Shown piece after piece: positions 37,349-63,504 of a stretch of DNA of 64,000 bases (positions are counted from its first letter, which is position 1; every line of letters begins with the position of its first letter). Source of the stretch: an uncultured Alphaproteobacteria bacterium. GTDB taxonomy: Bacteria; Pseudomonadota; Alphaproteobacteria; RF32; CAG-239. A program made the translations under genes and the position numbers. Location of the stretch: assembly GCA_944392835.1 (NCBI GenBank), contig CALXYB010000008.1, positions 4,821 to 68,820 on the forward strand, in the 5' to 3' direction. The notes beneath the pieces were generated by a model. That model saw nothing but the letters and a program-made list of their open reading frames with translations, was not told the DNA's origin and made no database searches.

Positions 37349-37413
37349 TTCATGGCCCCTAAGCGAGTTATTTTTACATAAAAACAATTAACAGTAATAT
37401 TTTTATCAAAAAA

Positions 37414-39006: not shown

Positions 39007-39015
39007 GATAAAAAA

Positions 39016-42074: not shown

Positions 42075-42323
42075 AGTTTTTCCTTCATAAAAAAAGCCCG
42101 CAGAATTTAATCTGCAGGCACAAACAAAAAAGGGAACAAGCCTTAAACACAACTCGTTCCCGATTATAGCTATTTTTATAAACTATTTTTCAGTTTTTGT
42201 CTTGTCTGTTTTTGTCGCAACCATAAACATTCATACGTATGTAATCGATAAAAATATCATTGCATACGTACAGAATTTAATTTACTATACGTTTTAGTTT
42301 ATAAAAAATATAAAGGTAAAAAA

Positions 42324-44748: not shown

Positions 44749-44757
44749 GGATAAAAA

Positions 44758-45486: not shown

Positions 45487-45512
45487 ACATATATGGGGTT
45501 AATAGCATTACT

Positions 45513-45926: not shown

Positions 45927-46540
45927 TCGCCAATGGGTGAAAATGAGTTCAATCCTGCATCACCCTTAGCCCATTTAATGACTTTGGCTTGCCAGTCGGT
46001 TATGGGTTTGTTACCGGTTTTCCACTGCTTTGCTGTGTAATAATCGTAAAATTCTTGCGGATTGATGTTTTTTAAGCCACGAACGGCACAATAAATCTTC
46101 ACATCTTCCAAACTCGGAACATCGGCAAGATATGAACTTTCTTTTTTGTTAGTTTTTTCTTTTATTTCCTTCTTTATTTTTTGGTTTAAATCATCTTCAT
46201 TTTTATTTTCATTATCATCTTCATCCTCATTAAGCTTGGCATTTGCCGATTTTTCAGCTTGCTTTTGCTCGGCATTTGCTCTGCGTTTGCTGGCGGCTTT
46301 GGTTGCTATTGCTCGCCGTTTTTCACAAACCGCATCATATTTTGAGAAATTGTCTTTAATGCTCTCGGCCATAAAATCATAGGCTTTGCTGATTTCTTGA
46401 GATACGGGTTTCATGGGTTCACCATACAAAACCATTTCACACAGAGCAGTCATTAACTCTCCACGCTGTTTTAAGTTAAGATGATTGGACAAGGCCAAAA
46501 ACTCCGGTGCGAACACGATAAAACTTTTCTTTTTATCCAT
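45881..46540 (-). CDS. putative replication/replisome-organiser-like protein (phage or plasmid type)
   Basis: N-terminal HTH-like region. Acidic and basic low-complexity middle. AGGAGG RBS. Confidence 0.35.
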   Translation of the reverse strand: MDKKKSFIVFAPEFLALSNHLNLKQRGELMTALCEMVLYGEPMKPVSQEISKAYDFMAESIKDNFSKYDAVCEKRRAIATKAASKRRANAEQKQAEKSANAKLNEDEDDNENKNEDDLNQKIKKEIKEKTNKKESSYLADVPSLEDVKIYCAVRGLKNINPQEFYDYYTAKQWKTGNKPITDWQAKVIKWAKGDAGLNSFSPIGDCFRLPKLARQGGVQ

Positions 46541-47073
46541 TTTGACCTCCTAAACTTTTCTTGATACGCTGTATGCCTTGAACCCATTTCAATGCCAACT
46601 TTGCCCTTTGAACCTCGCGGTTGATTTCTTTTTCCAAACAGTTGAGTTGTTTTTCTTCCAACTCTAAAAGGGCTAAAACCGGCACTCATCGGATTGTCTC
46701 AAAGATAGGTTTGTTCTTTGTGTATTGCATAAAAACCTCCGTTAAAATTGTCTTACGCAAAGAACAAGTCAAAATTGAAAAAAATCGTTCTCACTTTTTT
46801 TATTTTTTTGTAAACCGCAGTTTGGGCGAGATAATCGGTAAGGTAATTGAGTTGCGAAACAGGACATGCAGAGAAATCAAGAAAACTTTTGTTTTACAAT
46901 AAGCTGGCAAATGGTAACTAAAAATAGAGAGGTTTTCAACAAAAGTATAGATTTGGGCGTTTTTTCTGCAAAAGAACTGAAAAACACTTTCGATGATTTC
47001 CAACGCAGTTACCAGCGCACTTGGCAAATCGGCGCGGAATAAAGGGCTTGTTGATAAGGATTTAAAACGAAAA

Positions 47074-47097
47074 AAGAGGAAGTATAAACTTCCTCTT
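47074..47097 (-). terminator. terminator of catP
   Basis: gaggaagtataaacttcctc hairpin with T-run in minus orientation, immediately after the catP stop. Confidence 0.6.
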
Positions 47098-47101
47098 TTC
47101 A

Positions 47102-47135
47102 AATTGGTGATGCTTAACTCACGCTTTACGAGCTA
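47102..47135 (+). repeat. direct repeat, left copy (22-bp perfect aattggtgatgcttaactcacg + 12-bp imperfect)
   Basis: Identical 22-mer at 60421..60442. Extension ctttacgagcta versus gtttccgagcta. Confidence 0.8.
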
Positions 47136-47137
47136 TT

Positions 47138-47764
47138 TTATAAATTATCTATATTTTGTTGCAATTCATTTATAAATTTTGAAACATGCCTCCCATCACA
47201 AACAGCATGATGTGCCAAAACAGAAAAAGGAAGTATTGTTTTGCCGTTTTCTTCAATATATTTGCCCATAGTAAAAATAGGCATCAAGTAGTCATAACCT
47301 TGCTTCAAGTTTAAATTGAATGAAGAAAAATGAAGCCATGGTAGCATAGATACATAAAAAATATTAGGAGGACAATTCGGTTTGGCTTCATATTTCATTA
47401 TATTGCCATATTTATTAACATCAGAATTATAATTCCGGCAAAAAGTCTCAAAATCAGGATCATATTCACTCCAAATTCCTGAAAAAGTTTCCGTTTCTTT
47501 GTGAAAAATCGTATATGCCGGATGAACAATATCAAAAAAACCTAAAATTCCATCATCATCAAACATTGTTCGAAATTCTTCATGTTTATTAACAAGTCTA
47601 GCCAATAAATACAGCATTGCTGGGTAAAGTTTTAAACTTTTATTCCTGAGATTGGAAATATCTAAATTAACCGTTATACTAAACGTTGTGGGTACATTGC
47701 TATAAAATTGTTCAAAATATTCTTTACGTTCTCGCTGTTCCATATTGATTGGAGTAAATACCAT
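47138..47764 (-). CDS. catP: chloramphenicol O-acetyltransferase (type A, CatP-like)
   Basis: Collinear high similarity to clostridial CatP (KLYPAMLY, TETFSS, IFTMGKY, HHAVCDG catalytic His motif). 208 aa. Confidence 0.9.
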   Translation of the reverse strand: MVFTPINMEQRERKEYFEQFYSNVPTTFSITVNLDISNLRNKSLKLYPAMLYLLARLVNKHEEFRTMFDDDGILGFFDIVHPAYTIFHKETETFSGIWSEYDPDFETFCRNYNSDVNKYGNIMKYEAKPNCPPNIFYVSMLPWLHFSSFNLNLKQGYDYLMPIFTMGKYIEENGKTILPFSVLAHHAVCDGRHVSKFINELQQNIDNL

Positions 47765-47984
47765 ACTTATTTCCTTAATTTATATCTTTTAATTTAATGA
47801 ATATTATATTTACAGAAAACAATCTAAGCAATATTTTTTTGATTTATCAAAAAAAATTTTTATTCAATAGTCCTTTGAAAAATAAAGGATTATCATCAAA
47901 CGAGTTCGGAAAATTCTCCCAAAATGACATTTTCAAATTTACAACATTCGAACTCGATTAAGTGCTTGATTTATAAAAGAAAAA

Positions 47985-48020
47985 CGGCAGTTTTTGTACC
48001 TGCCGTTTGAAATGGTGATC
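47985..48020 (+). repeat. terminator hairpin + boundary core (tttgaaatggtgatc)
   Basis: cggcagtttttgtacctgccg hairpin followed by core related to the 47102 and 60421 repeats. Confidence 0.5.
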
Positions 48021-48169
48021 CCAACGAGATTGTCCGCGACATTGCTTCGCAATGCTTGTTCCTCTGCGCTCATTCGCAATTGCTCACCGGCGTTCTCCCA
48101 CCCGCCTTTCGCTTGTAGTCAAACTCGTCTCTACGAGTTCGTATCTCGGGGATGACTATAATACAAAAA

Positions 48170-48208
48170 CACCCTCCACAAGGGAGGGTGTTTTTGTATT
48201 GGTGATAG
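48170..48208 (+). repeat. terminator hairpin + boundary core (tttttgtattggtgatag)
   Basis: caccctccacaagggagggtg hairpin followed by core. Terminator of 48311..49036 in minus orientation. Confidence 0.5.
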
Positions 48209-48310
48209 TTCCGCAATGAATTTCGAACTTTTGCTTACCCCTGAATATCATGAAGCAACAATGCAGACATATCAGTTAGCCAAAGTATTCATGCAAAGCA
48301 ATCAAGAATA

Positions 48311-49036
48311 TCAACATTTGTGCCAACCGAGGAATTTACCGTTATTATCAAATTTGCATTCATAATGAAATCTGTCTTCACGCTCTGCAAAAAAGACGAA
48401 ATCTTTAATCGCTTTTGCTTTTAGTAGGTCAGGATAAACCACTGGTGTGAATCTCGCCTCATATCCACCCGTTTTGAACTCAATCAGAAATGGCTTTAGC
48501 TCTTTACAAAAACGTTTAAAGAATGCATCAATTGACCCAAAGGGTTTGCGAAAATTACATTCACACCATTTATTTGCGTTATTTTGAGCGTTTTCCCAAA
48601 ATTTCATAATTTCAGTTACCACACCATTCTTAGCGGATTTGAAATTTACTATTATCTTCTCATCAATGCCATTTAGTTCAATAATAAAGTTCCGCTTTTT
48701 AGTGTCAATAGATGCTTTTATTGCCCAACCACTATTTTCAATTTTGGATGTTGCAAAATATTCTGGTTTTAATACATCAATATTGTAGCGAGTAAATTGG
48801 TCACATAATTCAATCCAACGAGAACGGTCGCTATACGTTTGTCCTTGCCTTGCGATTGTTTTAATTTTAATAATCCCCATATTTTCTAAGGCCTGCATTT
48901 CCTCATATATATCAAAGTTGCTAAAATTAGTATCTGAGGTTAGTAATTGAATTTTATCAGCCCGTATTAGCAAATTTTGATAAATCATATTATCTTCAAT
49001 TACTTGTTGAATAAATGTCCTAATCGTATTTCTCAT
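48311..49036 (-). CDS. hypothetical protein
   Basis: 241-aa ORF. No recognisable domain. Confidence 0.4.
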   Translation of the reverse strand: MRNTIRTFIQQVIEDNMIYQNLLIRADKIQLLTSDTNFSNFDIYEEMQALENMGIIKIKTIARQGQTYSDRSRWIELCDQFTRYNIDVLKPEYFATSKIENSGWAIKASIDTKKRNFIIELNGIDEKIIVNFKSAKNGVVTEIMKFWENAQNNANKWCECNFRKPFGSIDAFFKRFCKELKPFLIEFKTGGYEARFTPVVYPDLLKAKAIKDFVFFAEREDRFHYECKFDNNGKFLGWHKC

Positions 49037-49319
49037 GGCAGTTCCTTTCAGTTGCCACTGGCATTATCGCTTGTATACTTTTAGGATATCAAAAACACAA
49101 CTTGAAACATTAAATAAAAGCATAGAACTAGAGCTAAGAAAAACATAATATCTTAATAACATGTATTAAAATATTTAATAAGAGTTAAATATAAAATATG
49201 AGTTTTTCAATTAGATAAATGCAAATTTTATAAAGTTTATAAGGGAAATTTTATTATTAATAAATTTATATACACATTAAACATGTATTATATTTTGTAT
49301 TAAGGGTTATCGTTTGCGA

Positions 49320-50273
49320 TTACTCAGCCCAATTATGCTCTTTTTTATGTCGTCTGACCGTATTTGTATTAGACTTCCGACTAAGTAATTCTTTCTCTTT
49401 ATCTGTAAATTCTTTCAAAATAGGCTCGATTTCCTTAAATCCAAATTTTTTTATTGCTTTGGAAGGAATTGATATAAATTGAATTGGGGATTCAGCATGT
49501 TTGCCTTTCTCTTTTCCAAGGATATTTTCTACATATAAAGCGTAGCCAATAATTTCAGAGGTTAAACTATAGCATTTTTCTTCGGTAAAAGAGGCTAAGA
49601 CGTTTTTAACTGTGTTTGAAATTAAATCATTTGCCGACGATAAATTTTCAATGTTTATTATGTTATGGGTTATTAGAGTGTGGATATATCCAAAAATAAT
49701 ATGACTTCTAGAGAGGTAATGGCTCAAAGCTTCATTAATATTAGTCATTCCCCAACCGGATATTGAAAATAAACTTTCAGAACCTTGTATAGTCAAACTT
49801 AGTCTATGTACCATTTCTTTCGCTTTATTACGAGAGAATTTATTTCGGCAGTAAGTATATAATCGTAATAAATTTAGCACAAAAAAATACGTTATTAAAA
49901 GTGGTGAAGTTTCTTCTTTTATAATATTTTTTATATTCTCGTACGTGTACCCATATATTAGTGATTGGGCACCTCCATTTGTAATATAAGATTCGTACTC
50001 GCATTTATAAATATCAAATAGCTCTTTAGAACATTTCTGCTTTTTTGCAACTTTAGAACGGTACATAAGAGAGTTAAGAGAATCTTCTTTGTCATCGGCG
50101 ATACTGTTCATTAAGTCAAAAGAAACCATCGCCTTATATTTTTTTAACTTTTCTTCATCCTCAATAGCAAATATATATGGAATAAGGTGAAACAATATGT
50201 TTTCTATTGCACATTCTTTTGATTTTTCAGATATTCTATGATTCAAATAGGGAAATGTAATTTCGCGTACCAT
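49320..50273 (-). CDS. hypothetical protein (possibly abortive-infection-like)
   Basis: 317-aa AT-rich ORF. Weak overall resemblance to Abi-type proteins only. Confidence 0.35.
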   Translation of the reverse strand: MVREITFPYLNHRISEKSKECAIENILFHLIPYIFAIEDEEKLKKYKAMVSFDLMNSIADDKEDSLNSLMYRSKVAKKQKCSKELFDIYKCEYESYITNGGAQSLIYGYTYENIKNIIKEETSPLLITYFFVLNLLRLYTYCRNKFSRNKAKEMVHRLSLTIQGSESLFSISGWGMTNINEALSHYLSRSHIIFGYIHTLITHNIINIENLSSANDLISNTVKNVLASFTEEKCYSLTSEIIGYALYVENILGKEKGKHAESPIQFISIPSKAIKKFGFKEIEPILKEFTDKEKELLSRKSNTNTVRRHKKEHNWAE

Positions 50274-50583
50274 ATTTACCTCTTCTGCTATTTGCTACAT
50301 ATTGAAGTTTAGAAATAAATGTAGTAGTTAAAACTTTAAATATAGTTTACGAAGATGTGTTAATCTTGAAAATTGTCAATATGCTGAAAACGTCACTCGT
50401 ACGCACATAGGTTGTTTAAAATCGCATAATTTATCAATTTTAATACAAACTGCCGCATATGGTCAAAAAATGCAGTTTATTTCTAATATGTTATTAAAAG
50501 AAATCAACTAAGGTATTATTTGTTCAAAGGAGATACAAGCGAGGCGGATAAAAGCAGAAAAATTAATAAGCATACTGTTCTTT

Positions 50584-51339
50584 TCAATTTTCATTCCAGA
50601 CTTTATTATAAATTTTCCCCCAACCTTCATTATGGCTTGCTCCGTCCACTTCAATAATTAAATCATCATTATCGACAAATTCACGAATCAAAATCGGTGG
50701 CATAACCTTGTCATGATTGCCGACATAATGAATTTGCGGAAGTTCGGCAAACTGTTTGTGATAGCTTTCCAAATTCATCGCCTCATTAAGCGGCGGCAGG
50801 TTGTGATATTGCGTCCATGCCAAGTGGTCGAGATTTCCGGCAATGGTTATAATTTTTTTGACATTCAACCCCCTTTTTGCGGTTGCAACCAATCCTGCAA
50901 CTTGTGCCCCTCCCGAAAAACCAACCAAAACAACTGGATTATTACCGGCAATTTGTCTTATCGTTTCATATTCGGCATTAATAATTTCAGGAGCAAATCG
51001 TGCGGTTGTCCAATGTCGTTTTGAACAAATAGGACTTTTAATATATTGACAGGGACGTGCGATATAAACAACATTCGGACTTTTATCACCGAAAGCCAAT
51101 TCACGAACTAATGTTCCGCGAGGTGTCGGGTCTTGTGTTGCTTTACCATGACTATTAAAAGCATAACCATCACCCTCAATATAAATCTTGTACACACCTT
51201 GCGGATTGGTTATCTTCTGCCATGTTACAATCGTAAAGTTCCGTGTTTCAACTTCTTTATAAACATAGTCGGAGGGGACTGTTATTGAGGAACAGTTTGT
51301 CAAAAGCAACAGCGCCGCAAATATTTTCATTAAAGTCTT
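50584..51339 (-). CDS. secreted alpha/beta-hydrolase (serine esterase/lipase-like)
   Basis: Signal peptide MKTLMKIFAALLLLTNCSS. GFSGG nucleophile elbow. Start trimmed from 51378. Confidence 0.55.
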   Translation of the reverse strand, partial: KTLMKIFAALLLLTNCSSITVPSDYVYKEVETRNFTIVTWQKITNPQGVYKIYIEGDGYAFNSHGKATQDPTPRGTLVRELAFGDKSPNVVYIARPCQYIKSPICSKRHWTTARFAPEIINAEYETIRQIAGNNPVVLVGFSGGAQVAGLVATAKRGLNVKKIITIAGNLDHLAWTQYHNLPPLNEAMNLESYHKQFAELPQIHYVGNHDKVMPPILIREFVDNDDLIIEVDGASHNEGWGKIYNKVWNEN

Positions 51340-51885
51340 CATAACGTTAACCATACCCCCTAATATTTTAAACCACAATAATATTTTAACTCTATATCTG
51401 TTTTTACGGTATTTTTCGCACGCATACGCATAAATCGCTTAAACCGCATAATTTATCATTTTTAATCAAAACTGCCGCGTATCATCAAAAAATGTGGTTT
51501 TATATGGTGAAATATTTTATTTTTTAATTGCAAATCAACCACACTCCCGATAACATACAGTCAGGCACGAAGTTTGCTTTGTGTTTAGTACCTTGAGTGG
51601 TACGGAGCTTTCATCGGCTTTTATTAGCTACGGTGTTAGGATATAGCATCGTCATATTGTCAGCTATTCATCATAGCTGGCAGTAAATATATCCCCGATT
51701 CATAGTTATCTATGGTCGGGGAGCTTTTGACGTATGTTCAGGAACCATATAACTATCTCTGAAAAAATATGGCTCTAAAGGTTAAAGGAATCATTTTAGC
51801 TAATATGATTGATGAACTCTCCGACCACCTTATAAAACAGGTGGTTTTCTTTTAATTGCAATTAAAGAAAAGGAAGTTTAATCAT

Positions 51886-54744
51886 ATGAAAAAAAATTTA
51901 CTCATAACAACCGCATTAGTTGCCGTTCTAAGTACAACTAGCGCTTATGCGGAATCACTCCCGAGTGATGCGTCAAATTTAACAACAGGTAAATATGTTG
52001 TTGAAGATACTGGTCAGGAAAATATCCATAACGGAAATATCAAACTCTCGGAAGAGGCTTCTTTAGAAGTAAATACCTATGTCGATATCGATGCCGAGCA
52101 GGATAAGGTCACCGATACAAGCCATATTTTTAACGTACAAGGAAATTTGGAAGTCGGCGATGCTACTAATGGCGGCGGTAGTTTATCGGTAAAACGCGAT
52201 GATGACAAAAAGCCGTTTATGAGCGTCAACGGGAATCTGACTGTCAATAACGGCGCCTCTGTTGATATGTCCAGCAACAGTGACTATTTCTCAACTATAA
52301 CTGTTAGCGAAAATGCCGATATTAAAGGCGGCAATGTTAAGATGAATAATGCTGAAATCTTTGTCAGAAAGGGTTTGAGCATTACCGGAGGCAACCTTGA
52401 ATTACAGAACAACGGTGGTTTGTATTTGCCGGAAGAGACTTCCAGTAATGTGACTATCAGCGGCGGCAAAATCACGATGAACGGCAACACGGAAATAGAC
52501 ACTTCCAAAGGCGATATTACCATCAGTGGCGGTGAAATTAATTTGAAAGATGCCAGTTCTATTAAAACCCGTGGCGGCAATATTAATATTTCAGATGGGA
52601 CGATTACCACTTCATATACCGGTAACGGAGACGGAGAAGTTATGTCTCTTATTGCCAACGGAAACGTTGAAATCAGTGGTGGAACGGTTAATTTGAATTC
52701 AACAACCATGGCTGCATTTGGCGGAAAAATGAATATTACCGGCGGAAATATTACATTAAAAGGAACTTCAACCAATGAGGCGTCTTTATGGTCTGCGGCC
52801 GGTGATTTAGATATTTCCGGAGCTGATACCGTTATCAATATGCAAGGCCATGCGGATATGGATAGCATTGATGACCGCCTTAATGTTGGAACACATACGA
52901 AAAATAATATTAATATTACAGATGCAACTATTAATATTTCCGGTACGGAAAACGAAATCGGCGCCGAAGGCTCTATTAATTTGAATAATGCAACATTGAA
53001 TGTTGCCGATGCCGGGGAGGTTTTGGTTTCAAATTCGGCTGATAAGAAACAAGGAACATTAAACCTTAATGGCGGTCTGATTAACTTAGGCGGTACAATT
53101 AATGGTAACGTTAATGGAAATGGCAATCTCTGTTTCAGAAACGCTGCCGCTACTGTCAGCGGTAACGTCTCCGGTTCTAATCTGGCTTTTGAGACTGACC
53201 ATTCTTTAAGTAAGGCGGTTTCAGGTACAATCGGCGATTTGGCTTCTCTGAGTGTTAATAAAGGCACATTGACCTATGATAAGCAAACCGGTACAATCGG
53301 TAATTTGAATGTTGCCGGCGGTTTGGATATTGGTACAAATACCGTCAATGCAACAGCCGTTGATTTTAAAGATAATTCAAAACTAGCCCTGCGTGTAGCT
53401 GCGGCTGATAATTACGGTAAAATCAATGCTGACAATATTACCATCGGCGATAAAACAACAATGAATGTCACTTTGGATAATGGTGTCGTTGGTAACGGTA
53501 AAACTTCTGAATTTAAATTCTTAAACGGTACGGTTAATGGTGATTTTACAAATAAAATTGCTGAAAATAACCGTTATGCGATTGAATGGACAGAGGATGG
53601 TTCTTTGAATATTACCGGAACAGCGACGGCATCTGATGTTGTTAATGAAGCCGGTGGTTCTACGAATAATGCCAAAACAGCGGAGGCCTGGGACAGTTTG
53701 ACATCTTCATCAACGGCAAGTGCCGGAGCTAAAGCAGTTGCTTCGGTTCTGAATGATTTATCGCAGAATAATGAACAGGCTTATGTTGAGGCTTTGACCG
53801 CGGTGGCTCCTGAAGTTGCACCGATGGTTCAAAAAACACAGACTGAAACGGCTAATCAGGTATTCGGGGCTGTATCAACTCGTTTAACCGGTGGTTCGGT
53901 TTCAACCGGCGGCGAGGGTATGTCTTCCGGCGATAACATTTTTGAACGCGCAGCGATGTGGGTTCAGGGCTTGTTTAATCATTCCAAACTTGATGATACG
54001 TCCAAAGCCAAAGGTTTTGATGCCGATACCAACGGTATTGCTTTCGGTTTTGAGAAGTTTGTGACCGATGATGTTAAAGCCGGTATCGGTTATGCTTACA
54101 GTAATACTGATATTGACGGCTTTAAGCGTGATACAGATGTTGATACTCATACCGCTATTTTGTATGGTGAATACAAACCGTCAAATTGGTATGTAAATGG
54201 TATTGCGACTTATGGTTGGTCTGATTATGACGAAAGCAAGAACGTTGCCGGTATCAAAGTTAATGCTGACTATGATGTTGAAACGTTTGGTTTGCAGGCG
54301 ATGACCGGTTATGATATGAACATTAAAGGTATCAATGTTACGCCGGAAACCGGTTTGCGCTATGTCCATATTAAGCAGGATGCTTATAAAGACTCTGCTG
54401 ACCAGCGCGTATCTGCCAATGACAGCGATATTTTGACCGGTGTTATCGGTGCCAAAGTCAGCAAGTCTTGGGAATTGTCTAATGGTATGACTGTCAAACC
54501 GGAAGCCCGCATTGCCGCGACTTATGACCTGTTTAACGATGATGTTAATTCGGTTGTTACGTTGGCGAATGGTTCGGCTTATACCGTTGATGGTGAAGCT
54601 CTTGACCGTTTCGGAATGGAATTTGGGGCTGGTGTAACTGCGGAAGTCAACGATAATGTCGAACTCTCGCTTGGTTATGAAGGCAAATTCCGTGAGGACT
54701 ACCAAGACCATACCGGATTGATTAATGCTAAATATAAGTTTTAA
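51886..54744 (+). CDS. autotransporter (type Va) with repetitive Gly/Asn-rich passenger and C-terminal beta-barrel
   Basis: Signal peptide. Passenger with repeated GGNI/ISGG beta-helix-like motifs. C-terminal domain ending ...NAKYKF, typical of autotransporter barrels. Confidence 0.75.
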   Translation: MKKNLLITTALVAVLSTTSAYAESLPSDASNLTTGKYVVEDTGQENIHNGNIKLSEEASLEVNTYVDIDAEQDKVTDTSHIFNVQGNLEVGDATNGGGSLSVKRDDDKKPFMSVNGNLTVNNGASVDMSSNSDYFSTITVSENADIKGGNVKMNNAEIFVRKGLSITGGNLELQNNGGLYLPEETSSNVTISGGKITMNGNTEIDTSKGDITISGGEINLKDASSIKTRGGNINISDGTITTSYTGNGDGEVMSLIANGNVEISGGTVNLNSTTMAAFGGKMNITGGNITLKGTSTNEASLWSAAGDLDISGADTVINMQGHADMDSIDDRLNVGTHTKNNINITDATINISGTENEIGAEGSINLNNATLNVADAGEVLVSNSADKKQGTLNLNGGLINLGGTINGNVNGNGNLCFRNAAATVSGNVSGSNLAFETDHSLSKAVSGTIGDLASLSVNKGTLTYDKQTGTIGNLNVAGGLDIGTNTVNATAVDFKDNSKLALRVAAADNYGKINADNITIGDKTTMNVTLDNGVVGNGKTSEFKFLNGTVNGDFTNKIAENNRYAIEWTEDGSLNITGTATASDVVNEAGGSTNNAKTAEAWDSLTSSSTASAGAKAVASVLNDLSQNNEQAYVEALTAVAPEVAPMVQKTQTETANQVFGAVSTRLTGGSVSTGGEGMSSGDNIFERAAMWVQGLFNHSKLDDTSKAKGFDADTNGIAFGFEKFVTDDVKAGIGYAYSNTDIDGFKRDTDVDTHTAILYGEYKPSNWYVNGIATYGWSDYDESKNVAGIKVNADYDVETFGLQAMTGYDMNIKGINVTPETGLRYVHIKQDAYKDSADQRVSANDSDILTGVIGAKVSKSWELSNGMTVKPEARIAATYDLFNDDVNSVVTLANGSAYTVDGEALDRFGMEFGAGVTAEVNDNVELSLGYEGKFREDYQDHTGLINAKYKF

Positions 54745-54773
54745 TAATTAGCTAACCGGTATAAAATGCTCTG

Positions 54774-54980
54774 TTACTTATTGGTTGCAGAGCATTTTTT
54801 ATTGTCAATACTGGCTTTGATGAATTGATGTTTGTGGTTGGGGCTATTAGGGCAAGTACCACCCTTTGGAGCTAGTTCCTTATGACCGCACCACTGACAA
54901 ATAAAGCCTTGACGATGGATTAAGTCCTTTTTTAGCCTTTCTAAAATTTCACGAATAGCTTTGACATCGTCTTTTTTCAT
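54774..54980 (-). CDS. small zinc-ribbon-like protein
   Basis: CQWCGH...CPNSPNHKH Cys/His cluster. Hairpin terminator at 54752-54790. Confidence 0.3.
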   Translation of the reverse strand: MKKDDVKAIREILERLKKDLIHRQGFICQWCGHKELAPKGGTCPNSPNHKHQFIKASIDNKKCSATNK

Positions 54981-55344
54981 TTTTTTGAGCTCCTAAAATT
55001 GATTATTGTTTATATAATAAAATTATTTAAGCATTTGATTTTTCAGTATTTTACTTGATTTTACTGTTGCAATTTGCGGTAGAGTATGTTATAATATATT
55101 ATATTTGAAATTGATTCGATTCGTTTTCATTTCAAATATAAATCACCGACATATTAGCCTGTATGGTCTGCTTTTTTCATCAGAGCGGATAAGGTTTTAT
55201 ATGTTTGAAAGTGAGGGGTGATATGCTGTACATTACAAACATCAAAAATAAGTTTTGTAGGGCATATCACTTACCCAAATCCGCAACTATTCAGAGCCTT
55301 TGTTAATTACCTTGGCTCTTTTTTTATTTTAAAGGAGTAAAAAT

Positions 55345-55668
55345 ATGAATGTTGAAAAAATAAAACAGCTGAACGACACATTCCGCAAAACATTCTGTGG
55401 CGGACGCGTTGTTTTAACCGTAGGTATTCAATCAATGCCTACTGATGACCGAAGTGAGCTTTTGAAACAAGTTCAGGAGTTCGATAAATTTACCGAAGAC
55501 AACGACCCCTACGGGGAACATGATTTTGGGGCAATAAGTTTCAAAAACGATACATACTTCTGGAAAATCGACTATTACGATACCGATTATAATTATTTAA
55601 GCCCCGACGCAAGCGACTCCAATGTCACAAACCGTGTCTTAACAATTATGCGGGGAGACGAATATTGA
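55345..55668 (+). CDS. conserved hypothetical (plasmid-associated DUF-like) protein
   Basis: 107-aa ORF with RBS AAGGAG. Stop overlaps next start. Confidence 0.4.
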   Translation: MNVEKIKQLNDTFRKTFCGGRVVLTVGIQSMPTDDRSELLKQVQEFDKFTEDNDPYGEHDFGAISFKNDTYFWKIDYYDTDYNYLSPDASDSNVTNRVLTIMRGDEY

Positions 55669-56195
55669 GTAACCCGAATTACAAATGTCAGGGAGATACC
55701 GACAACTTATGCGGCATTTATGCCAGCCTAAATAGTATTATCAAAGCAACCGATGGTGTGATGACAATTAGTCAGACCAGAGCGAGAACCCTTTTCGGGG
55801 AAATTATCAGCCATTTACACCGTCGGAGGCTATTATATAAAATTCACCAACATGGGACGAATGTGCAACAGCTTAACGAATATTTGACCTTACTTGAAGA
55901 CAAACTCGCCGAAAAAATAAATATACATCATTATTTCCCTTTTTCAGAAAGAACCAGAACTAAAACAGTTATCAAACGACTTACTGATATGTCTTCTGAA
56001 AAACACATCGCGGTAATTTTGCCTTTAGAGGGAAAATACTATCACTGGAGCCTGCTCGATAAAGTAGTCGGTAATCGCATTTATTTAATTGATTCTAATC
56101 ATCTTAAATATATTAATATTGATAAAATTCCCGATATTCACCAGATGTGTCCCGAAGAAGTATGCATCGTTGTTGCCGATACGGAGGCTGTATAA
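55665..56195 (+). CDS. hypothetical protein (possible Cys-peptidase-like N-terminus)
   Basis: CQGDTDNLCGIYASLNS weakly resembles Q...C papain-like active-site spacing. Speculative. Confidence 0.3.
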   Translation: MSNPNYKCQGDTDNLCGIYASLNSIIKATDGVMTISQTRARTLFGEIISHLHRRRLLYKIHQHGTNVQQLNEYLTLLEDKLAEKINIHHYFPFSERTRTKTVIKRLTDMSSEKHIAVILPLEGKYYHWSLLDKVVGNRIYLIDSNHLKYINIDKIPDIHQMCPEEVCIVVADTEAV

Positions 56196-56314
56196 ATGAA
56201 GTATACCGTGCTTTCACAGATGATTTTGTGTGTAAACAAAGTCAAAAACCGCATTTATTGCACACCTGTAAACGCAAGTTATAAATTTCAATTTCACATA
56301 AAGGAGCAAAAAAT

Positions 56315-56860
56315 ATGATTTTTAACTATATCCGTGTTTCAACTACCGACCAAAACACCGAACGACAACTTTTAGATATTCCGTGCGACCGAGCTTATAT
56401 TGAAAAAATCAGCGGCAAAAATACCGACCGCCCTGAATTACAGGCTATGTTATTAAATATTCGTTCCGGCGACATTTTAAATATTCACGAAATGAGTCGT
56501 TTGGCTCGTAATACTCGGGATTTGCTGAACCTTGTAGAGGAAATTACAGCCAAAGGAGCGACTATAGTCTTTTATAAAGAAAATTTGACCTTCAAAGGCG
56601 ATGGAAAGCAAGACCCTTATCAGAAAATGATGATGACGATGTTAGGAGCCGTTGCGGAGCTTGAACGTAATTTAATCCTTGAACGCCAACGAGAGGGTAT
56701 AGCTCTTGCCAAACTTCACGGCAAATATAAAGGCGGTCAGCCTAAACTAACCGCCCAACAAGTCGAAGAAATAAAAGCCCTTGTTAATAATCGCACACCA
56801 ATAACGCAAATTGCCAGACAATATAACATCAGCCGTCGTACTGTATATAACTACCTATGA
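56315..56860 (+). CDS. small serine recombinase (resolvase/invertase family)
   Basis: IRVSTTDQ catalytic Ser motif. C-terminal HTH. 181 aa. Confidence 0.8.
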   Translation: MIFNYIRVSTTDQNTERQLLDIPCDRAYIEKISGKNTDRPELQAMLLNIRSGDILNIHEMSRLARNTRDLLNLVEEITAKGATIVFYKENLTFKGDGKQDPYQKMMMTMLGAVAELERNLILERQREGIALAKLHGKYKGGQPKLTAQQVEEIKALVNNRTPITQIARQYNISRRTVYNYL

Positions 56861-56897
56861 AAAAAGGCGGTCAACCCATAAGCCAACCACCCAACAA

Positions 56898-57650
56898 TTA
56901 ATTCCCATTTTTAATGTCGCTAATAATATTGCGTAAAATTTCTTTTCCTTTTCCCCCTGCAAAAGCTAAATCATATATTCTAAAACGTTTGAGATGAATA
57001 AAGTTAGCATAAACAGCCTTGTACGTCATATTGGTGTTTTTGAGGCCAATCGTTAAATTTCTCCTCATAAATGTTCTTTTTCCGCCAAATAATGCTTTGA
57101 AACTGTACTGTATTGCAGATTCTAAATCATATTGAGGTCTGACGACAAAGGGCCTAATTCTACTTTGAGGGAAGTATTTTTTTATACGTTTCGATAGTTT
57201 CCCTTTTTCCCATCTAGTTAAAGTTCTGAAAAAAATTCCGTGAATATGTGGTGTCATCAGAGTACCATCTTGCTGGAATGATATCCGAGGAAATTCATCT
57301 AAAGCAACATTAGCGATATAATCATATCCTTTAAAAATCTTTTTTATTTTCTTTTGAAATGACTTGTGTTGGAAATTCCAATTATCCTGCCCAAAATTAT
57401 ATTTATCGACAACAACAGTAAACATAGAGATATTGTTATTACCGATAACTGGTTCCAAGTATGAATAAGCAACATCTGAAAAGTTTTTGAGAGCTAGAGG
57501 TTGCATCATTCCAAATCCAGTTCGACTATTAACATACCTTATTAATCGGCTCTTTACATAAACATCTTTAACATACAAATCAATTGCTCTTGTCACTTTT
57601 CTGAGTTGCAAATTTGCATTTTGTTCAAATCTTTCTGAAAAAGTTTTCAT
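56898..57650 (-). CDS. HUH-type replication-initiator / relaxase-like protein
   Basis: PHIHGIFF (HUH motif). Downstream Tyr-containing YKAVYANF. Confidence 0.4.
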   Translation of the reverse strand: MKTFSERFEQNANLQLRKVTRAIDLYVKDVYVKSRLIRYVNSRTGFGMMQPLALKNFSDVAYSYLEPVIGNNNISMFTVVVDKYNFGQDNWNFQHKSFQKKIKKIFKGYDYIANVALDEFPRISFQQDGTLMTPHIHGIFFRTLTRWEKGKLSKRIKKYFPQSRIRPFVVRPQYDLESAIQYSFKALFGGKRTFMRRNLTIGLKNTNMTYKAVYANFIHLKRFRIYDLAFAGGKGKEILRNIISDIKNGN

Positions 57651-57792
57651 TTTAATTTATTCCTTAATTGACTGATTTAACTGCATTATGTTTAAAATAT
57701 GGTTGTATACATACATTTGCAGTTTTCGCAAAAACGTTGTAATACAACGTTTTTCAAAAAAAGGGGAACAGTTTAAATTGTCCCCCTTTCTA

Positions 57793-58512
57793 TTATTGTA
57801 ATTTAAAAAACTCGAAATCATCCAGCTTTTTAATTAAAGCAACATCTGTGCTTTTGAATGCTTCACCCTCTGTAACCCAGATGACGTAACTTTCATCTTC
57901 AATTTTATTATTTTTCAAAAAGTTAACGATTTTAGTGCTCAAATAAGGTTTGGCTGAATTAGATGAAGAGGCTTTATGATTTTCTTCTGTATCATCATCA
58001 CTTTCATCGTCATCATCTTCGTCAAGGTCATCATTCTCTTCAGATGTTTCATTGCTAAAGTCAAATTCCAATTGGTTTTCATTATTCTCTTCTTCCTCTT
58101 CTTCAGATTGCTCTTTTGAACGAGGATTGGCAAAATAATCAATCCCAAATTTTTTCAACTCTTCGTTAGCTCTTTTAACATCATATTGAAGCTCATCAAA
58201 GTGTTTCAAGACTCTAACATAAGTTCTGATTCTTGCTTTTATGTGTTCATCATCACAGTCACTTGAAACGTTCATGGCTAACATTAATACCATTTTCATT
58301 GGTTTTGAAGCTGAGTATTTAATATTTGCCTTTTTACATCGCTTTTTAATGACTTTCTCGTTGTAATGAAGACAAACGTCATAACACCCAATGATGGCCT
58401 GGCGTATGTGTTTACGTCCTTTTAACTCAAATTTTCCAAAAGATGCGAAATCTTTTTTTGCTATGTTGAGTTTTTCAACGATTTCGTCTTTATTATAAGA
58501 TTCAAGAAACAT
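57793..58512 (-). CDS. acidic (D/E-rich) hypothetical protein
   Basis: Long Asp/Glu run in centre. Overlaps next ORF start. Confidence 0.35.
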   Translation of the reverse strand: MFLESYNKDEIVEKLNIAKKDFASFGKFELKGRKHIRQAIIGCYDVCLHYNEKVIKKRCKKANIKYSASKPMKMVLMLAMNVSSDCDDEHIKARIRTYVRVLKHFDELQYDVKRANEELKKFGIDYFANPRSKEQSEEEEEENNENQLEFDFSNETSEENDDLDEDDDDESDDDTEENHKASSSNSAKPYLSTKIVNFLKNNKIEDESYVIWVTEGEAFKSTDVALIKKLDDFEFFKLQ

Positions 58513-58816
58513 TTTGTATTTCCTTTATTTCTTTGTCTGCATAATAAAGAGTGAGAAAAAGTTTCAATAACTGCTCATAAATAGCCAAAGCCTCATCATC
58601 AGATAAAACTTCATTTGGATACCATGATTTAATTACATCTTCTTTTCTCATAGCTTCACAATTTAGACAAAATTGATACACAGCCAATTGGCTGGAAAGA
58701 CAATTCATTTGCCTTACAATATGAACAATAGCGTAAACATCGTTAGTTTGGAAATTGTTAGTTTCTAAGGGTTTTGTGTGATTGATAGAAACATCCAACG
58801 ATATTGTAACAATCAT
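58502..58816 (-). CDS. hypothetical protein
   Basis: 104-aa ORF coupled to downstream gene. Confidence 0.3.
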   Translation of the reverse strand: MIVTISLDVSINHTKPLETNNFQTNDVYAIVHIVRQMNCLSSQLAVYQFCLNCEAMRKEDVIKSWYPNEVLSDDEALAIYEQLLKLFLTLYYADKEIKEIQNVS

Positions 58817-58906
58817 TAGAAAAAGCTAACAATCGTTATTGGAAACAAATAAATTGCTTGTTTTGTCTAAAATCACATAATATTATTATTTTTAACAATT
58901 GGAGAT

Positions 58907-60436
58907 TTGAAAATGATAAAAAATGCAGTTTTATTAAGGCGAGTATCGACCGTTATGCAGGAGCGTGATGGTAATTCACTTCAAAATCAATCAGAAATGC
59001 TAACTCAATACTGTGAACGAAAAGAGATGACTATCATTAAAGACGCAGAAATAGTCGAGAGCAGTACCAGAGGCGAACGTAAAAAATTTATGGAAGTCAT
59101 AAAGTTCTGCCAACAACAACGCGGTGGTGTTGCTTTAGTATGTTTGAAGACTGACAGACTGTTTCGAAACTTCAAGAATTATACATTGATTGATGAAATG
59201 CGAAAAAGCGGACAGCTTGAGCTTCACCTGATTCAAGAAAACTTAGTGTTAAATAAAGATTCCAAAGCCGGTGACTTAACCATACTCGGTTTAAATGTCG
59301 TTATGGCTCAAAACTATGCTCTTAGCTTACGAGATAATGTGGTTTACGGTATGGATTATTCTGTCAATCAAGGACGGTGTATGTCGAAAGCTCCAGCAGG
59401 CTATTTAAATATAAGAACACCGGACGGAAAAGCCGCTGTAATTATTGACAATGAACGAGCTCCAATTATTCAGAAACTTTTTGAAGAATACGCAACAGGG
59501 CTTTATTCGGTTAAGGACATGATGAAAAAATGCAAAGAATGGGGGCTTGTCAGTCGGTTTTCCGGTAAACCGTTTGATACAAGCACAATTCACCGCATAT
59601 TAAATAACAAATTCTACATTGGGGAAATGCTGTATAAAGACCAATGGCACAAGCACAATTACGAAACATTGATTGCACCTGCTTTGTTCAAAACTTGTCA
59701 GGATATTATGCACGGTCGCAAACCAGAAGAACCTAAACATTTCAAAACCACCGAAAAGCCCTTTATCTTTCGAGGACTGATAACTTGTGGAGAATGCGGT
59801 TGTATGGTTAGTAGCTACCGCAAAACGAAACCTAGCGGTAGAGAATATGTTTATCTGAAATGTTCGCATTTCAAGGGAAACTGTAACAATCCGCAAGTTA
59901 ATGAAAACGTTGTTTTACAACAAATTGAAGACGAATTGAAAAACTTGTCCGTACCGCAAGAGATAATGGGCTATCTTAAAGCTGATATGGAGAAAATCAT
60001 AAATCGACAGAATGAAGCCCATAACCGTGAAGTCAAAGCCATTCGCAAGAAATACGATGACTGTCAGGATAAAATTAAACGTCTGCGGTCATTACTGCTT
60101 GAGGGATATATTACACCGGAAGAATACCGTGACATGAATGAAGACCTTAAAAATGAGCAGTACGAACTAGAGGGGAAATCAGAATTGTTGACAGAAGCTG
60201 ATGAAAAGTTTTCAATCGCAGTCGCGACAATACTTTCCTTGGGCAATAATGCGTATAAAATCTTTCAGAGTTCGAAAGTAGAAACAAAAAGAGAGATTTT
60301 GCACATCTTACTTTCGAACTTGAAATTGCAAGACCGTAAAATCTCTTATACCTTTAGAAAACCTTACGATTACATCAAGTCTTTAAATAAAAAAATACCC
60401 TCAAAAACTGAGGGTATCGCAATTGGTGATGCTTAA
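58907..60436 (+). CDS. large serine recombinase
   Basis: N-terminal resolvase domain (RRVSTVMQ), recombinase domain, Cys zinc ribbon (CGECGC...C...C) and coiled-coil. Last five codons lie inside the 22-bp direct repeat. Confidence 0.85.
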   Translation: MKMIKNAVLLRRVSTVMQERDGNSLQNQSEMLTQYCERKEMTIIKDAEIVESSTRGERKKFMEVIKFCQQQRGGVALVCLKTDRLFRNFKNYTLIDEMRKSGQLELHLIQENLVLNKDSKAGDLTILGLNVVMAQNYALSLRDNVVYGMDYSVNQGRCMSKAPAGYLNIRTPDGKAAVIIDNERAPIIQKLFEEYATGLYSVKDMMKKCKEWGLVSRFSGKPFDTSTIHRILNNKFYIGEMLYKDQWHKHNYETLIAPALFKTCQDIMHGRKPEEPKHFKTTEKPFIFRGLITCGECGCMVSSYRKTKPSGREYVYLKCSHFKGNCNNPQVNENVVLQQIEDELKNLSVPQEIMGYLKADMEKIINRQNEAHNREVKAIRKKYDDCQDKIKRLRSLLLEGYITPEEYRDMNEDLKNEQYELEGKSELLTEADEKFSIAVATILSLGNNAYKIFQSSKVETKREILHILLSNLKLQDRKISYTFRKPYDYIKSLNKKIPSKTEGIAIGDA

Positions 60437-60454
60437 CTCACGGTTTCCGAGCTA
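60421..60454 (+). repeat. direct repeat, right copy
   Basis: Identical 22-mer to 47102..47123. Overlaps the large serine recombinase stop codon. Confidence 0.8.
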
Positions 60455-60530: not shown

Positions 60531-61811
60531 TTGAGGTTGTTTATGTGTAATGAATGTTTAGTTTATCCGGCATTACAAAAATTTTATAATGCTCTGGACA
60601 TCATTGATAAAATTGATTGCAAAAAATATATATTTGAAACAATTCCTCAGCTTGATGCTTTTTTCTCAGAAATGAGAAATATTACATTTGTCTTACAAAA
60701 AAGCTTTAATACTCCTGAACTAAAAATAGATTATGAACAAATTAGAGATAAATTCTTTAACAATAGTACTATGAATTGGTTCAAAAATACTAGAAATGAA
60801 ATATCAAAACAACATCCATTCAAACTGGAAAAGGCCTTAGAAATAGAATATTATCTACCAAATTTTTCTATAAAAGCAACAAACTCTAGGCTAACGATAG
60901 ACAACGATTATAACTTTCTCGATCTATACCAAAGTTTAAAAAACTTTTTAGATACTCATTATTCGAATAGCGTTGAAGTTTTTTTAAGTACAAACATAAC
61001 ATTTTTAGAAAATGGAGAAGAAGTTAATGTTTATTCCATAATTCGAGATGGAATAGATATAATGAATTCCTTTATACAGGAGCTCATCTCTAAATATCCC
61101 TGTAATTGTGTCAAATGTATGAGATTACAAAATTCAATTAAATCTCTCATTGAGAATATAAACATTAAACAATTAACATTTTCCTCAGATTTATATTATG
61201 CCGATAAAGAATTATCTATTGGAAGTGAAATTTATACTTTCTTAGATCCGAAACATTCTCTATTGACTCCTGCAATGCCATTAAAAAACAGCATTTGGGA
61301 TATGAACAACTCACTAAATTGCGACTTGAATTTGTTAAGAGTTTTTTCTTATCACCATATAGTTCTTGCACGAATACAGAGAACCCAATCTTCAGATAGT
61401 GAGCTAATGCCCGTATTTTTAATAATCTATAAAAATAATACATACTCATTTTATGGTCCAATTACTGGTACAAATAAATCCACATTTTACAGAGCTATTA
61501 GCAATATTTGTAAGATTATTACAAATAATCAAGTTAAAGCTGTTTTAATGCTTTCAGAAGCGTACTTCTATAAAGATAAAGATTTAACTAAATTACAAAA
61601 TATGAAATATAAAGATAGAATAAAAGAAGCTTCTGGGGTTAATATATTATTTTCACTGGTTTCAAAACAAATGAAAAAAATATGTAATATAACAATAGAT
61701 TATGAAAATCTGTTTAATGATGAGTACATATATAAAAACATTAAAGACATTGAAATGTGTAATCCTGAAGACCATACAGCATATCCTATTTTTCAAGCCC
61801 TACATTCATAA
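60531..61811 (+). CDS. hypothetical protein (very AT-rich cargo between two large serine recombinase genes)
   Basis: 426-aa ORF. No recognisable domain. N/I/K-rich composition distinct from backbone. Confidence 0.4.
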   Translation: MRLFMCNECLVYPALQKFYNALDIIDKIDCKKYIFETIPQLDAFFSEMRNITFVLQKSFNTPELKIDYEQIRDKFFNNSTMNWFKNTRNEISKQHPFKLEKALEIEYYLPNFSIKATNSRLTIDNDYNFLDLYQSLKNFLDTHYSNSVEVFLSTNITFLENGEEVNVYSIIRDGIDIMNSFIQELISKYPCNCVKCMRLQNSIKSLIENINIKQLTFSSDLYYADKELSIGSEIYTFLDPKHSLLTPAMPLKNSIWDMNNSLNCDLNLLRVFSYHHIVLARIQRTQSSDSELMPVFLIIYKNNTYSFYGPITGTNKSTFYRAISNICKIITNNQVKAVLMLSEAYFYKDKDLTKLQNMKYKDRIKEASGVNILFSLVSKQMKKICNITIDYENLFNDEYIYKNIKDIEMCNPEDHTAYPIFQALHS

Positions 61812-63404: not shown

Positions 63405-63504
63405 TTTTAACTACTCCATTGATTTAACACAATATTATTATGTCGCGTTAATTTGGGAATGTACGCAAAAAAATGCACTTTTAGGCAACTTTTTTACTAA
63501 TATT

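Follow-up and report, generated by a model that had tools for sequence, protein, structure and literature searches.

The stretch of DNA that concerns us here, which we call the window, is 64,000 nt long, comes from an uncultured gut alphaproteobacterium and supplies all of our coordinates. Between 47102 and 60454 it carries a chloramphenicol acetyltransferase (CAT) gene, an autotransporter gene, a small resolvase-type recombinase gene and, at the far right, a gene for a large serine recombinase (LSR) that we call LSR1, all of them framed by a short direct repeat. An initial annotation took this interval to be one discrete, resistance-bearing mobile unit with the repeats as its two ends. We have tried to focus on what that reading leaves to the repeats themselves: what are they made of, and which DNA does each of them bound? 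Our answer is that the interval is most likely part of a tandem array, whose integrative units went in one after another by site-specific recombination at a 9-bp core, ATTGGTGAT. Three units make it up—a CAT cassette (47103-48019), a short unit that holds a tRNA remnant (48020-48206), and the LSR1 element (48198-60430)—and the repeat marks two neighbouring units.

The repeat itself is as the initial annotation had it. The window has two copies of the 22-mer AATTGGTGATGCTTAACTCACG and no more, one at 47102-47123 and one at 60421-60442, each on the plus strand; 100 dinucleotide-preserving shuffles gave no match to it, even with up to three mismatches allowed; and by direct reading the similarity reaches 47135 and 60454, which makes 34 bp with two mismatches (C/G and A/C). 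It is composed of the 9-bp core and a 24-bp left arm that we call M1 (GCTTAACTCACGsTTTmCGAGCTA). The core is the reverse complement of the last seven bases of tRNA-Glu (ATCACCA, including the CCA) plus two more (AT), and the 24 bp of M1 are not tRNA sequence. Each copy of the repeat is preceded, on the plus strand, by a different GC-rich hairpin, an intrinsic terminator when read on the minus strand, and a scan of the window for a hairpin followed by a core finds five plus-strand sites, at 36042, 47103, 48011, 48198 and 60422. What comes after the core differs from site to site: M1 at 47103 and 60422, CCCAACGAGATT at 48011, and AGTTCCGCAATGAATTTCGAAC, an arm that we call P2, at 48198. At 36042, a right-end module of the family that we call A-fam (35906-36040) is followed by ATTGATGAT and then by ATTGTTAGTCTAAAG; two degenerate junctions lie near 33189 and 33614 (ATTAGTGAT followed by GCGGTTAGCCTAAG...). 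The junction-rich, low-GC region runs from about 33 to 64 kb of the window and continues rightwards, and the array probably starts near 30.5-33 kb. Two complete junctions, at 48011 and 48198, lie inside the interval, which speaks against a single discrete unit.

Where, then, does the element that carries the recombinase begin and end? One related locus (L030 in our numbering of the loci compared), whose LSR is 92% identical to LSR1, begins to align with the window precisely at 48198 and stops at 60429, and its element is flanked on both sides by AATTGGTGA. The same left junction of core and P2 stands in L019 and L054, and a scan of metagenomes with the P2 pattern gave 34 loci, in which core and P2 follow at least seven unrelated left partners. 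On the right side, a 9.2-kb record (L001, MT836653) that is about 80% identical to 53122-60430 loses its homology after ...GCAATTGGTGAT and passes straight into an opposite-strand tRNA-Glu(ttc), and L102, the closest relative of LSR1 that we found in context (94% nucleotide identity to 57702-60430), loses it at 60430 and enters tRNA-Glu(ctc). Taken together, the right junctions of LSR1-type elements adjoin tRNA-Glu(ttc), tRNA-Glu(ctc), a tRNA-Lys-like site and several other arms. By these alignments, the recombinase-bearing element is 48198-60430, a 12.2-kb and presumably autonomous unit with LSR1 at its extreme right and the P2 arm at its extreme left. The initial annotation had rightly seen mobile DNA driven by a large serine recombinase, with the repeats at recombination junctions; it erred in taking the repeats for the two ends of one unit, since the LSR1 element has ends of its own at 48198 and 60430, the M1 arms belonging to the CAT cassette and to the next element on the right, the LSR2 element.

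M1 is far from private to this locus. In a one-genome-per-species collection, the 21-mer of core and M1 occurs in 28 stretches, nearly all of them from metagenome-assembled genomes (MAGs) of uncultured human-gut alphaproteobacteria (26 are labelled alphaproteobacterial or proteobacterial). In 54 unique junctions, drawn from 57 sources, the conserved part comprises TTTG, the core and some 21-24 nt of M1; beyond it conservation collapses, the flanks being variable on both sides and recombined combinatorially. Of the 28 loci, 15 have an intact tRNA-Glu to the right of M1, on the opposite strand; the distance is 1.9 kb in one of them and 0.7-1.6 kb in the other 14. The DNA between junctions is a series of 0.55-2.75-kb units with a single open reading frame (ORF) each, 19 of these on the minus strand and 10 on the plus strand; each such cassette has core and M1 at its left and, at its right end, an A-fam module of about 135 bp, a hairpin and a core. 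Identical cassettes turn up behind different left neighbours. Eight of ten cargo proteins that we scanned had family matches, and the cargo families are four GNAT acetyltransferases, a methyltransferase, a carboxylesterase, a shikimate-kinase-like protein, a hexapeptide transferase and a nitroreductase. The CAT unit has this same architecture of M1, gene, A-fam module and core, and therefore the cat gene sits in such a cassette. The initial annotation had named independent insertions as what would undo its reading, and independent insertions are, in essence, what we see in the internal junctions, in the separate ends of the LSR1 element and in these 28 stretches, with M1 at the head of unrelated cassettes.

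The CAT cassette is 917 bp long and consists of the M1 left arm, one gene and the right-end module, with no recombinase. Its protein scores 279.5 bits on the NCBIfam type A model chloram_CatA (cut-off 270) and contains AHHAVCDGRH, which includes the catalytic HHAVCDG motif. It is, by prediction, a type A chloramphenicol acetyltransferase, a divergent one, and not catP; the label of a clostridial-type catP gene thus keeps its enzyme class and loses its name, identity being at most 54% to plasmid-borne cat genes and, in a large protein collection, 99% to one relative, 73-76% to a few and at most 59% to all others. The homologues at 74% share the coding sequence and not the flanks, and they lie outside M1 cassettes; because it is the coding sequence only that they share, cat appears to have entered its cassette by capture within this lineage. 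Among samples that hold the exact CAT, it occurs only in the arrangement of the window, always together with the LSR1 element. A promoter-like region lies between cat and the A-fam module. That module is 72-94% identical to cassette right ends in 11 loci (at least 81% in seven, L007, L008, L011, L012, L013, L014 and L016), and in the loci compared it always stands directly left of a core; RNAalifold finds one 5-bp helix in it and nothing more. We considered whether the module might be a recognizable remnant of a recombinase gene: it has no protein-level match to 120 LSR homologues and a loose nucleotide alignment only. Both copies in the window (47875-48009 and 35906-36040) conserve an inverted pair, GAGTTCGGAAA ... 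TTCGAACTCG, about 35 nt apart, with apparent compensatory changes, AAGTTCGG / CCGAACTT, in the copy at 35906-36040; the motifs of the pair also occur in the coding 3' end of LSR1, as AGTTCGAAA ... TTCGAACTT.

Between the CAT cassette and the LSR1 element lies the short unit, about 190 bp long and, like its counterparts elsewhere, always bracketed by two cores. The 19-nt match to tRNA-Glu at 48020 is made up of the remnant and the last 7 bases of the core, and the similarity ends after 12 nt. The same sequence of parts—core, 12-nt tRNA remnant, some 150-200 nt, hairpin, core—recurs in L017, L021, L025, L029, L065 and L066. Neither Rfam nor ARAGORN matches 48020-48197, and Rfam, run on 44-64 kb, returns no family for M1, the hairpins or this unit. 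The short unit also holds a T-arm-like CGAGTTCGTATCTCG on the plus strand. M1 itself was tried as the 3' end of a tRNA or tmRNA, having an acceptor-like geometry (…GCATCACCA), and was rejected, as it is without a proper T-loop and has no ARAGORN match. At some tRNA-Glu junctions (L024, L025, L017, L065), the plus strand shows ...GCATCACCA(T/C)T and a hairpin just before. There, an inverted copy of the core faces the tRNA, with a terminator shared between the two, a hint that arrays or RNA genes approach from the opposite side.

On the right, the LSR2 unit runs past the end of the window with no further junction up to at least window-equivalent 73404 (more than 13 kb). From 60421 rightwards, M1 and 3.58 kb are 99.2-100% identical in L016, L045, L047, L048 and L049, and this left junction has at least five different left partners, among them two kinds of A-fam cassette end (L045/L048 and L047/L016) and another module in L018, whose stored stretch is short. 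The right-end module of the unit upstream of the CAT cassette is likewise joined to other right arms in L049 and L019. L049 deserves a closer look, because there a homologue of the left flank of the window is joined, through a single core and M1, to the right flank. The last 60 nt of its left flank differ by 1 nt (a 340-bp homologous stretch is 89% identical overall), its right flank is 99.97% identical over 3.58 kb, and further to the left its DNA bears no relation to that of the window. The single-copy junction that the initial annotation proposed to look for does exist, then; since the DNA further left is unrelated, it is not a strict empty site, and it shows that the modules can adjoin, not that 13.3 kb moved in one step. 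Within the LSR2 unit and beyond the window end (L044 1-9900, same contig BRZ_B NODE_242), there are a TnpV homologue, a Fic protein, a Rep_ORF2-G2P-like protein and a 639-aa protein that resembles EF-G and has its five domains complete, as tetracycline ribosomal-protection proteins do; about 3 kb past the window end there may thus be another gene of the resistance type.

Features of the interval and its borders (positions in the window)
Feature	Position	Strand	Basis or remark
Hairpin, right end of upstream unit (~36051-47102)	47075-47096	-	Terminator-like site 47100-47071; just downstream of cat
Core ATTGGTGAT, crossover region	47103-47111	+	tRNA-Glu junctions of L001 and L102 use the identical 9 bases
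M1 arm GCTTAACTCACGCTTTACGAGCTA, left arm of CAT cassette	47112-47135	+	Conserved across the 54 unique junctions
Predicted type A chloramphenicol O-acetyltransferase, 208 aa, sole cargo	47138-47764	-	PF00302, E 2e-73, 247 bits
A-fam right-end module (~135 bp)	47875-48009	+	Includes terminator hairpin 47985-48005
Core AATGGTGAT, closing CAT cassette	48011-48019	+	Hairpin and core scan
tRNA-Glu 3'-end remnant (reverse complement) CCCAACGAGATT, 12 nt	48020-48031	+	19/19 match to L001 tRNA-Glu
c-family short unit	48032-48197	+	Ends in hairpin 48169-48191
Core ATTGGTGAT, left junction (attL) of LSR1 element	48198-48206	+	L030 homology begins exactly here
P2 left arm, including detached last 52 codons of LSR1 gene	48207-48362	+	In frame with LSR1 across reconstituted attP
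Cargo and backbone genes of LSR1 element	48311-56195	mixed	ORFs, Pfam
241-aa and 317-aa ORFs of LSR1 element	within 48311-56195	-	
Alpha/beta hydrolase	50584-51378	-	Weak family match
Autotransporter	51856-54744	+	Beta-domain, E 2e-54
DUF3768 gene	55345-55668	+	Followed by 176-aa ORF (+)
Small serine recombinase, resolvase/invertase type, 181 aa	56315-56860	+	PF00239 and HTH_7
250-aa backbone protein, possible HUH-type Rep	56898-57650	-	
Large serine recombinase LSR1	58907-60436	+	PF00239, PF07508 (Recombinase), PF13408 (Zn_ribbon_recom), all above cut-offs
Hairpin in LSR1 coding end	60395-60417	-	Terminator; identical in L001, where tRNA-Glu is next
Core ATTGGTGAT, right junction of LSR1 element	60422-60430	+	Homology of L001, L030 and L102 stops at 60429-60430
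M1 arm of LSR2 element	60431-60454	+	With core, forms the right repeat
Start of LSR2 unit	60531-63993	mixed	Unit extends past window end
426-aa ORF of LSR2 unit	within 60531-63993	+	
LSR2	61806-63404	-	
162-aa serine-recombinase-like ORF	63505-63993	-	

The right repeat falls inside a gene, as the initial annotation had noticed: the stop codon of LSR1 (TAA, 60434-60436) lies within it, and the last 2 codons and the stop are supplied by the M1 arm of the neighbour. Is this an accident of one assembly? The C-terminal tails of 39 LSR1 homologues are identical as far as ...EGIAIG(D/E) and then differ according to what adjoins the core. In most, the tail is antisense tRNA-Glu (DPNEIRTR..., DPNGIRTRVAALRG...); in others it is antisense to a tRNA-Lys-like sequence or comes from array arms, the copy in the window ending with 'A' and a stop taken from M1. 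That the tails diverge just after EGIAIG(D/E) places the crossover within the LSR1 frame; and, to judge by what most of them go on to encode, integration is aimed primarily at the tRNA-Glu 3' end. When the attP is reconstituted on paper, the LSR1 frame runs on from ...IGD into P2 for 52 more codons (SSAMNFELLLTPEYHEATMQTYQLAKVFMQSNQEYQHL...). Among 23 unique P2 sequences, the LSR frame is free of stops in 23 of 23, giving tails of 38-71 residues (mostly 52 or 41), and the other five frames have stops in 15-23 of the 23. The synonymous share of differing codons is 42-43% in the LSR frame vs about 10% in the two other plus-strand frames, with the P2 sequences mutually related and the control frames taken from the same sequences; the excess persists beyond the first 30 bp of P2, and the single antisense frame whose synonymous fraction is comparable is interrupted by stops in every sequence. 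From these reading frames, we conclude that the P2 tail is coding and that integration would split the recombinase gene.

What is left of the protein may be enough. The zinc-ribbon domain of LSR1 occupies residues 287-345, and after it come a long stretch of helix and, at the end, a strand region; the canonical recombinase fold seems to end before the crossover, and truncated LSR1 may still be active. The product called in public assemblies starts at the ATG at 58913 and has 507 aa, and LSR1 matches a PHROG integrase family with E 7e-71. The detached tail does not end in an ssrA-like tag. The hairpin in the coding end of the gene would terminate tRNA-Glu when the element adjoins the tRNA.

The arms carry a further regularity. 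Counted from the core, CGA(A/G)C stands at +18 to +22 in M1, in P2 and in the arm next to P0024-type elements (in another arm, P4, CGA stands at +18-20), and tRNA-Glu has CGAAC at +13 to +17. In the structural model of serine integrases, the distal motif lies 5 bp further out in attP than in attB half-sites. If that model holds here, the tRNA junction alone would be attB-like and all internal junctions attP-like, and a tRNA junction that alone is attB-like fits growth of the array at the tRNA end. P0024 itself is an 82% homologue of LSR1 (L050-L059); exactly the same protein is followed by the conserved arm GCGGTTTCCAGTCATCGCGAACTGGTC and then by sample-specific defence islands (DarT/Macro, type I restriction-modification, GmrSD, OLD-like nucleases, and HATPase_c_3 with a methylase).

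How might such an array be built? LSR1 would recombine the attP of a circle—the end of the LSR gene, the core and P2—with the 3' end of tRNA-Glu, and the incoming element would supply a replacement tRNA end together with its terminator. Because the tRNA would stay intact and the site reusable, units would pile up, with the newest of them next to the tRNA. As the crossover falls within the LSR1 frame, the same event would sever the conserved 52-residue tail, which would come to lie at the other extremity of the element, and would put in its place whatever residues the neighbour encodes (here, 'A' and a stop). The CAT cassette, lacking a recombinase, would be moved in trans, with an LSR2-type enzyme as the leading candidate. 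Going one step further, we propose two things jointly and tentatively, as a real possibility that falls somewhat short of probable. One is that, in gut alphaproteobacteria of this uncultured lineage, tRNA-Glu genes anchor integron-like arrays of single-gene mini-cassettes captured and shuffled by large serine recombinases and not by an integron integrase, each cassette with a fixed 33-bp signature of core and M1 at the left and a module of about 135 bp at the right, the CAT gene being one such cassette. The other is that full-length LSR1 is made only from the circle, so that the conserved tail of 38-71 residues would belong to the circle alone and the integrated copy would be tail-less or junk-tailed. 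If so, the form of LSR1 reports whether the element is in or out, and it could set the direction or the level of recombination.

Several points weigh against an array built by repeated integration, and we gather them here. ARAGORN calls no tRNA gene in the window, and the anchoring tRNA-Glu is also absent from the next 9.4 kb rightwards. The steps just described are modelled on known large serine integrases. The junctions, the limits of the units, the changing neighbours, the tRNA-Glu target and the coding tail we read in assemblies; the excised circles, the sequence of events, the pairing of enzymes with units and any part played by the tail we infer. A candidate for the circle junction, in which the 3' end of an LSR gene is followed by the P2 arm (L098), turned out to join two units in tandem: a cassette that ends in a truncated LSR remnant of 320 nt and, after it, an LSR1-type element. 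At only 4 of the M1 loci does an LSR2-type gene, the candidate for moving the cassettes, lie within 8 kb. Internal junctions look attP-like in the canonical serine-integrase scheme, which leaves the excision of a single internal unit unexplained. And L049 is compatible with the whole 13.3 kb entering or leaving as one piece. Suppose, then, that it did: a single 13.3-kb element, one event, the 34-bp repeats as attL and attR and LSR1 acting on both. L049, with its left-flank type, one core and M1, and a right flank without the 13.3 kb, is what one would expect to see, and the CAT cassette and the LSR1 element do co-occur in every sample with the exact CAT; yet the DNA further left in L049 has nothing to do with the window, and samples that share the arrangement may hold the same strain. 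Such an element would have to tolerate the complete junctions at 48011 and 48198 in its interior, the left end of LSR1-type elements is P2 in the window, in L019, L030 and L054 and in all 34 metagenome loci and never M1, and M1 heads its unrelated cassettes regardless. We regard the single element as very unlikely. A composite asks for less: the units arrived separately, but 47103-60421 can excise as one circle, through a recombinase of relaxed specificity, as CcrAB is in composite islands of the staphylococcal cassette chromosome (SCC), or through homologous recombination between the two 34-bp copies of core and M1. The two sites share 22 identical bp and the type of arm, an L049-type junction is the expected product, and tandem SCC units are mobilised together (PMC11470126). 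Against it, 34 bp is short for RecA-dependent exchange. Both sites, moreover, would be attP-like for canonical serine integrases, which do not normally recombine such a pair, and on balance we find the composite rather unlikely.

Two further explanations do away with part of the scheme. M1 could be a dispersed intergenic repeat, such as a repetitive extragenic palindrome (REP)-like sequence or a terminator-associated RNA motif, that happens to lie near junctions. A terminator hairpin always lies beside it, and M1 can itself fold into a small imperfect one; yet it always abuts the 9-bp core that delimits LSR elements, the sequences flanking it recombine combinatorially, the mixed orientation of the cargo (19 minus, 10 plus) does not suit a 3'-untranslated-region element, and it has CGA at +18-20, as the P2 and P4 arms do, and no Rfam match. 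This we find hardly credible. Or the small M1 cassettes could be moved by a tyrosine recombinase, integron-like or aimed at tRNA genes, with the 9-bp core as its overlap, serine recombinases moving the larger elements only. A 9-bp identical core at a tRNA 3' end is typical of tyrosine integrase sites, L030 has a small Phage_integrase gene, and most arrays have no serine recombinase within 8 kb. The core, however, is demonstrably the crossover region of LSR elements, the distal CGA of M1 stands in register with that of the LSR arms, the L098 cassette has a plain LSR-gene remnant as its right end, and no integron-type integrase was seen beside any array, although no systematic search for one was made; a tyrosine recombinase strikes us as distinctly unlikely.

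An array of integrative units at tRNA-Glu, if that is what we have here, is not without relatives. In SCC and SCCmec, the large serine recombinases CcrAB or CcrC act at the 3' end of rlmH (orfX), and there are tandem units and pseudo-SCC units without a recombinase (PMC11470126). The likeness is considerable: a large serine recombinase at the 3' end of a conserved gene that is left intact, tandem units between short direct repeats, some of them without a recombinase, and resistance or defence cargo. The differences are that the target here is the 3' end of tRNA-Glu and not rlmH; that the host is an uncultured gut alphaproteobacterium; that LSR1 scores 77 bits on the CcrB model (cut-off 900) and LSR2 70 bits on CcrA (cut-off 700); and that there are many single-gene cassettes of about 1 kb and an attP inside the recombinase gene. 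Integrons, too, have 0.5-1.5-kb units, promoter-poor to single-gene, with a conserved boundary signature, a cargo of acetyltransferases, CAT, esterases and nitroreductase, and probably the newest unit by the fixed site. Here, unlike in integrons, the boundaries are a sequence-conserved 33-bp core and M1 and a module of about 135 bp, with no attC hairpin or attI sites seen, the anchor is a tRNA, cargo is found on either strand, and a promoter-like region belongs to the CAT cassette itself. No IntI-type integrase appears among the genes tabulated for the loci that we examined, the 28 MAG loci not having been profile-scanned for tyrosine recombinases.

Other systems share one trait or another. 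Clostridial Tn4451 and Tn4453 combine the large serine recombinase TnpX with catP and tnpV, and we, too, have a CAT gene beside a large serine recombinase and a TnpV homologue in the neighbouring LSR2 unit; here, however, the CAT is not catP and sits in its own cassette outside the LSR1 element, the distinction resting on CAT and gene placement. By the features tested, the locus is not a member of the SCC family, not Tn4451 and not an integron. Beside integrative and conjugative elements such as ICESt1 and ICESt3, there are cis-mobilizable elements, att-flanked units without recombination genes that depend on tyrosine integrases at the 3' end of fda. They are like our cassettes in standing, recombinase-less and att-flanked, in tandem with an autonomous element at a shared site, and unlike them in the recombinases (serine here) and in size, our units being far smaller. 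Tycheposons of Prochlorococcus use tyrosine recombinases in 910 of 937 cases and large serine recombinases in a minority (bioRxiv 10.1101/2020.12.28.424599). They are likewise anchored at tRNAs, with successive integrations that push older units inwards, partial tRNA remnants in between, and cargo, but their repeats are partial tRNAs, and ours are 9 bp with element-specific arms; in the text consulted, miniature single-gene cassettes arrayed behind a shared 24-bp arm are not described. As to the split gene, Mx8 IntP and SSV1 Int have their attP inside their own integrase coding sequence. Mycobacteriophage repressors of the BPs type have an attP in the coding sequence, and integration removes a regulatory tag (PMC3694055). 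Here, too, integration would alter a protein C-terminus through a crossover in the gene, but the gene that is cut is that of the large serine recombinase itself, and its tail is without an ssrA-like tag. Our look through the literature turned up no large serine integrase gene cut by its own attP, which is weak evidence of absence.

Why should any of this matter? For resistance surveillance, the unit that would count is a 0.9-kb cassette with a predicted chloramphenicol resistance gene, not a 13-kb element; in principle, reshuffling could carry the cassette between the arrays that many human-gut alphaproteobacterial MAGs contain, and its neighbourhood includes an element with a tet-like ribosomal-protection gene. 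More broadly, this tRNA-anchored locus may be to serine recombinases what cassette arrays are to integron integrases. Genome engineering makes wide use of serine integrases, and the control of their directionality is an active question. The locus also appears to supply a natural example in which an attachment site cuts the gene of its own large serine integrase, and the tail that would exist in the attP state only is directly testable.

The remaining genes of the LSR1 element were, for the most part, correctly called in the initial annotation: the autotransporter, the small resolvase and, at the right end, the large serine recombinase are all there, and the esterase comes down to a weak alpha/beta-hydrolase match. 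The DUF3768 gene and the one after it are conserved in L001, L030 and L051-L057. In L030, a small tyrosine recombinase (Phage_integrase) occupies the slot of the small resolvase, a swap that would suit multimer resolution of a replicating circle. The 250-aa protein is conserved in all LSR1-type backbones, has no sequence match in Pfam, PHROG or PDB, and keeps H135xH137 and Y182xxK185 invariant in 19 homologues; an AlphaFold2 model of it (pLDDT 80) gives weak, non-significant Foldseek matches, the best of them to RepB and AAV Rep origin-binding domains (E about 0.2, probability at most 0.57), so that a HUH Rep-like protein is plausible but unproven. A megablast of the whole interval against plasmids found no match, and scans of viral contigs with the core-M1 21-mer, the LSR1 protein and the P2 pattern all came back empty. 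The sole megablast match in a phage collection, L001, is an unverified virome contig that includes a chromosomal tRNA-Glu, and we do not count it as evidence of a phage. An imperfect direct repeat of about 60-80 bp (85%), at 50419-50478 and 51441-51500, lies upstream of the minus-strand 317-aa ORF and of the alpha/beta hydrolase and resembles a duplicated promoter or leader region.

Elsewhere in the window, a 647-aa ORF (1665-3608) that has no NCBIfam match contains tandem-like repeats at 1932-2370, with a period of about 87 bp (70-74%). The upstream unit, 36051-47102, carries radical-SAM, LdcA-like, Hsp70-like, DUF6362 and DUF6291 genes, and no recombinase was spotted in it. A 340-bp direct repeat, 33692-34030 and 34147-34485, is 87% identical with a 455-bp period, and several copies of it are present in L019 and L021.

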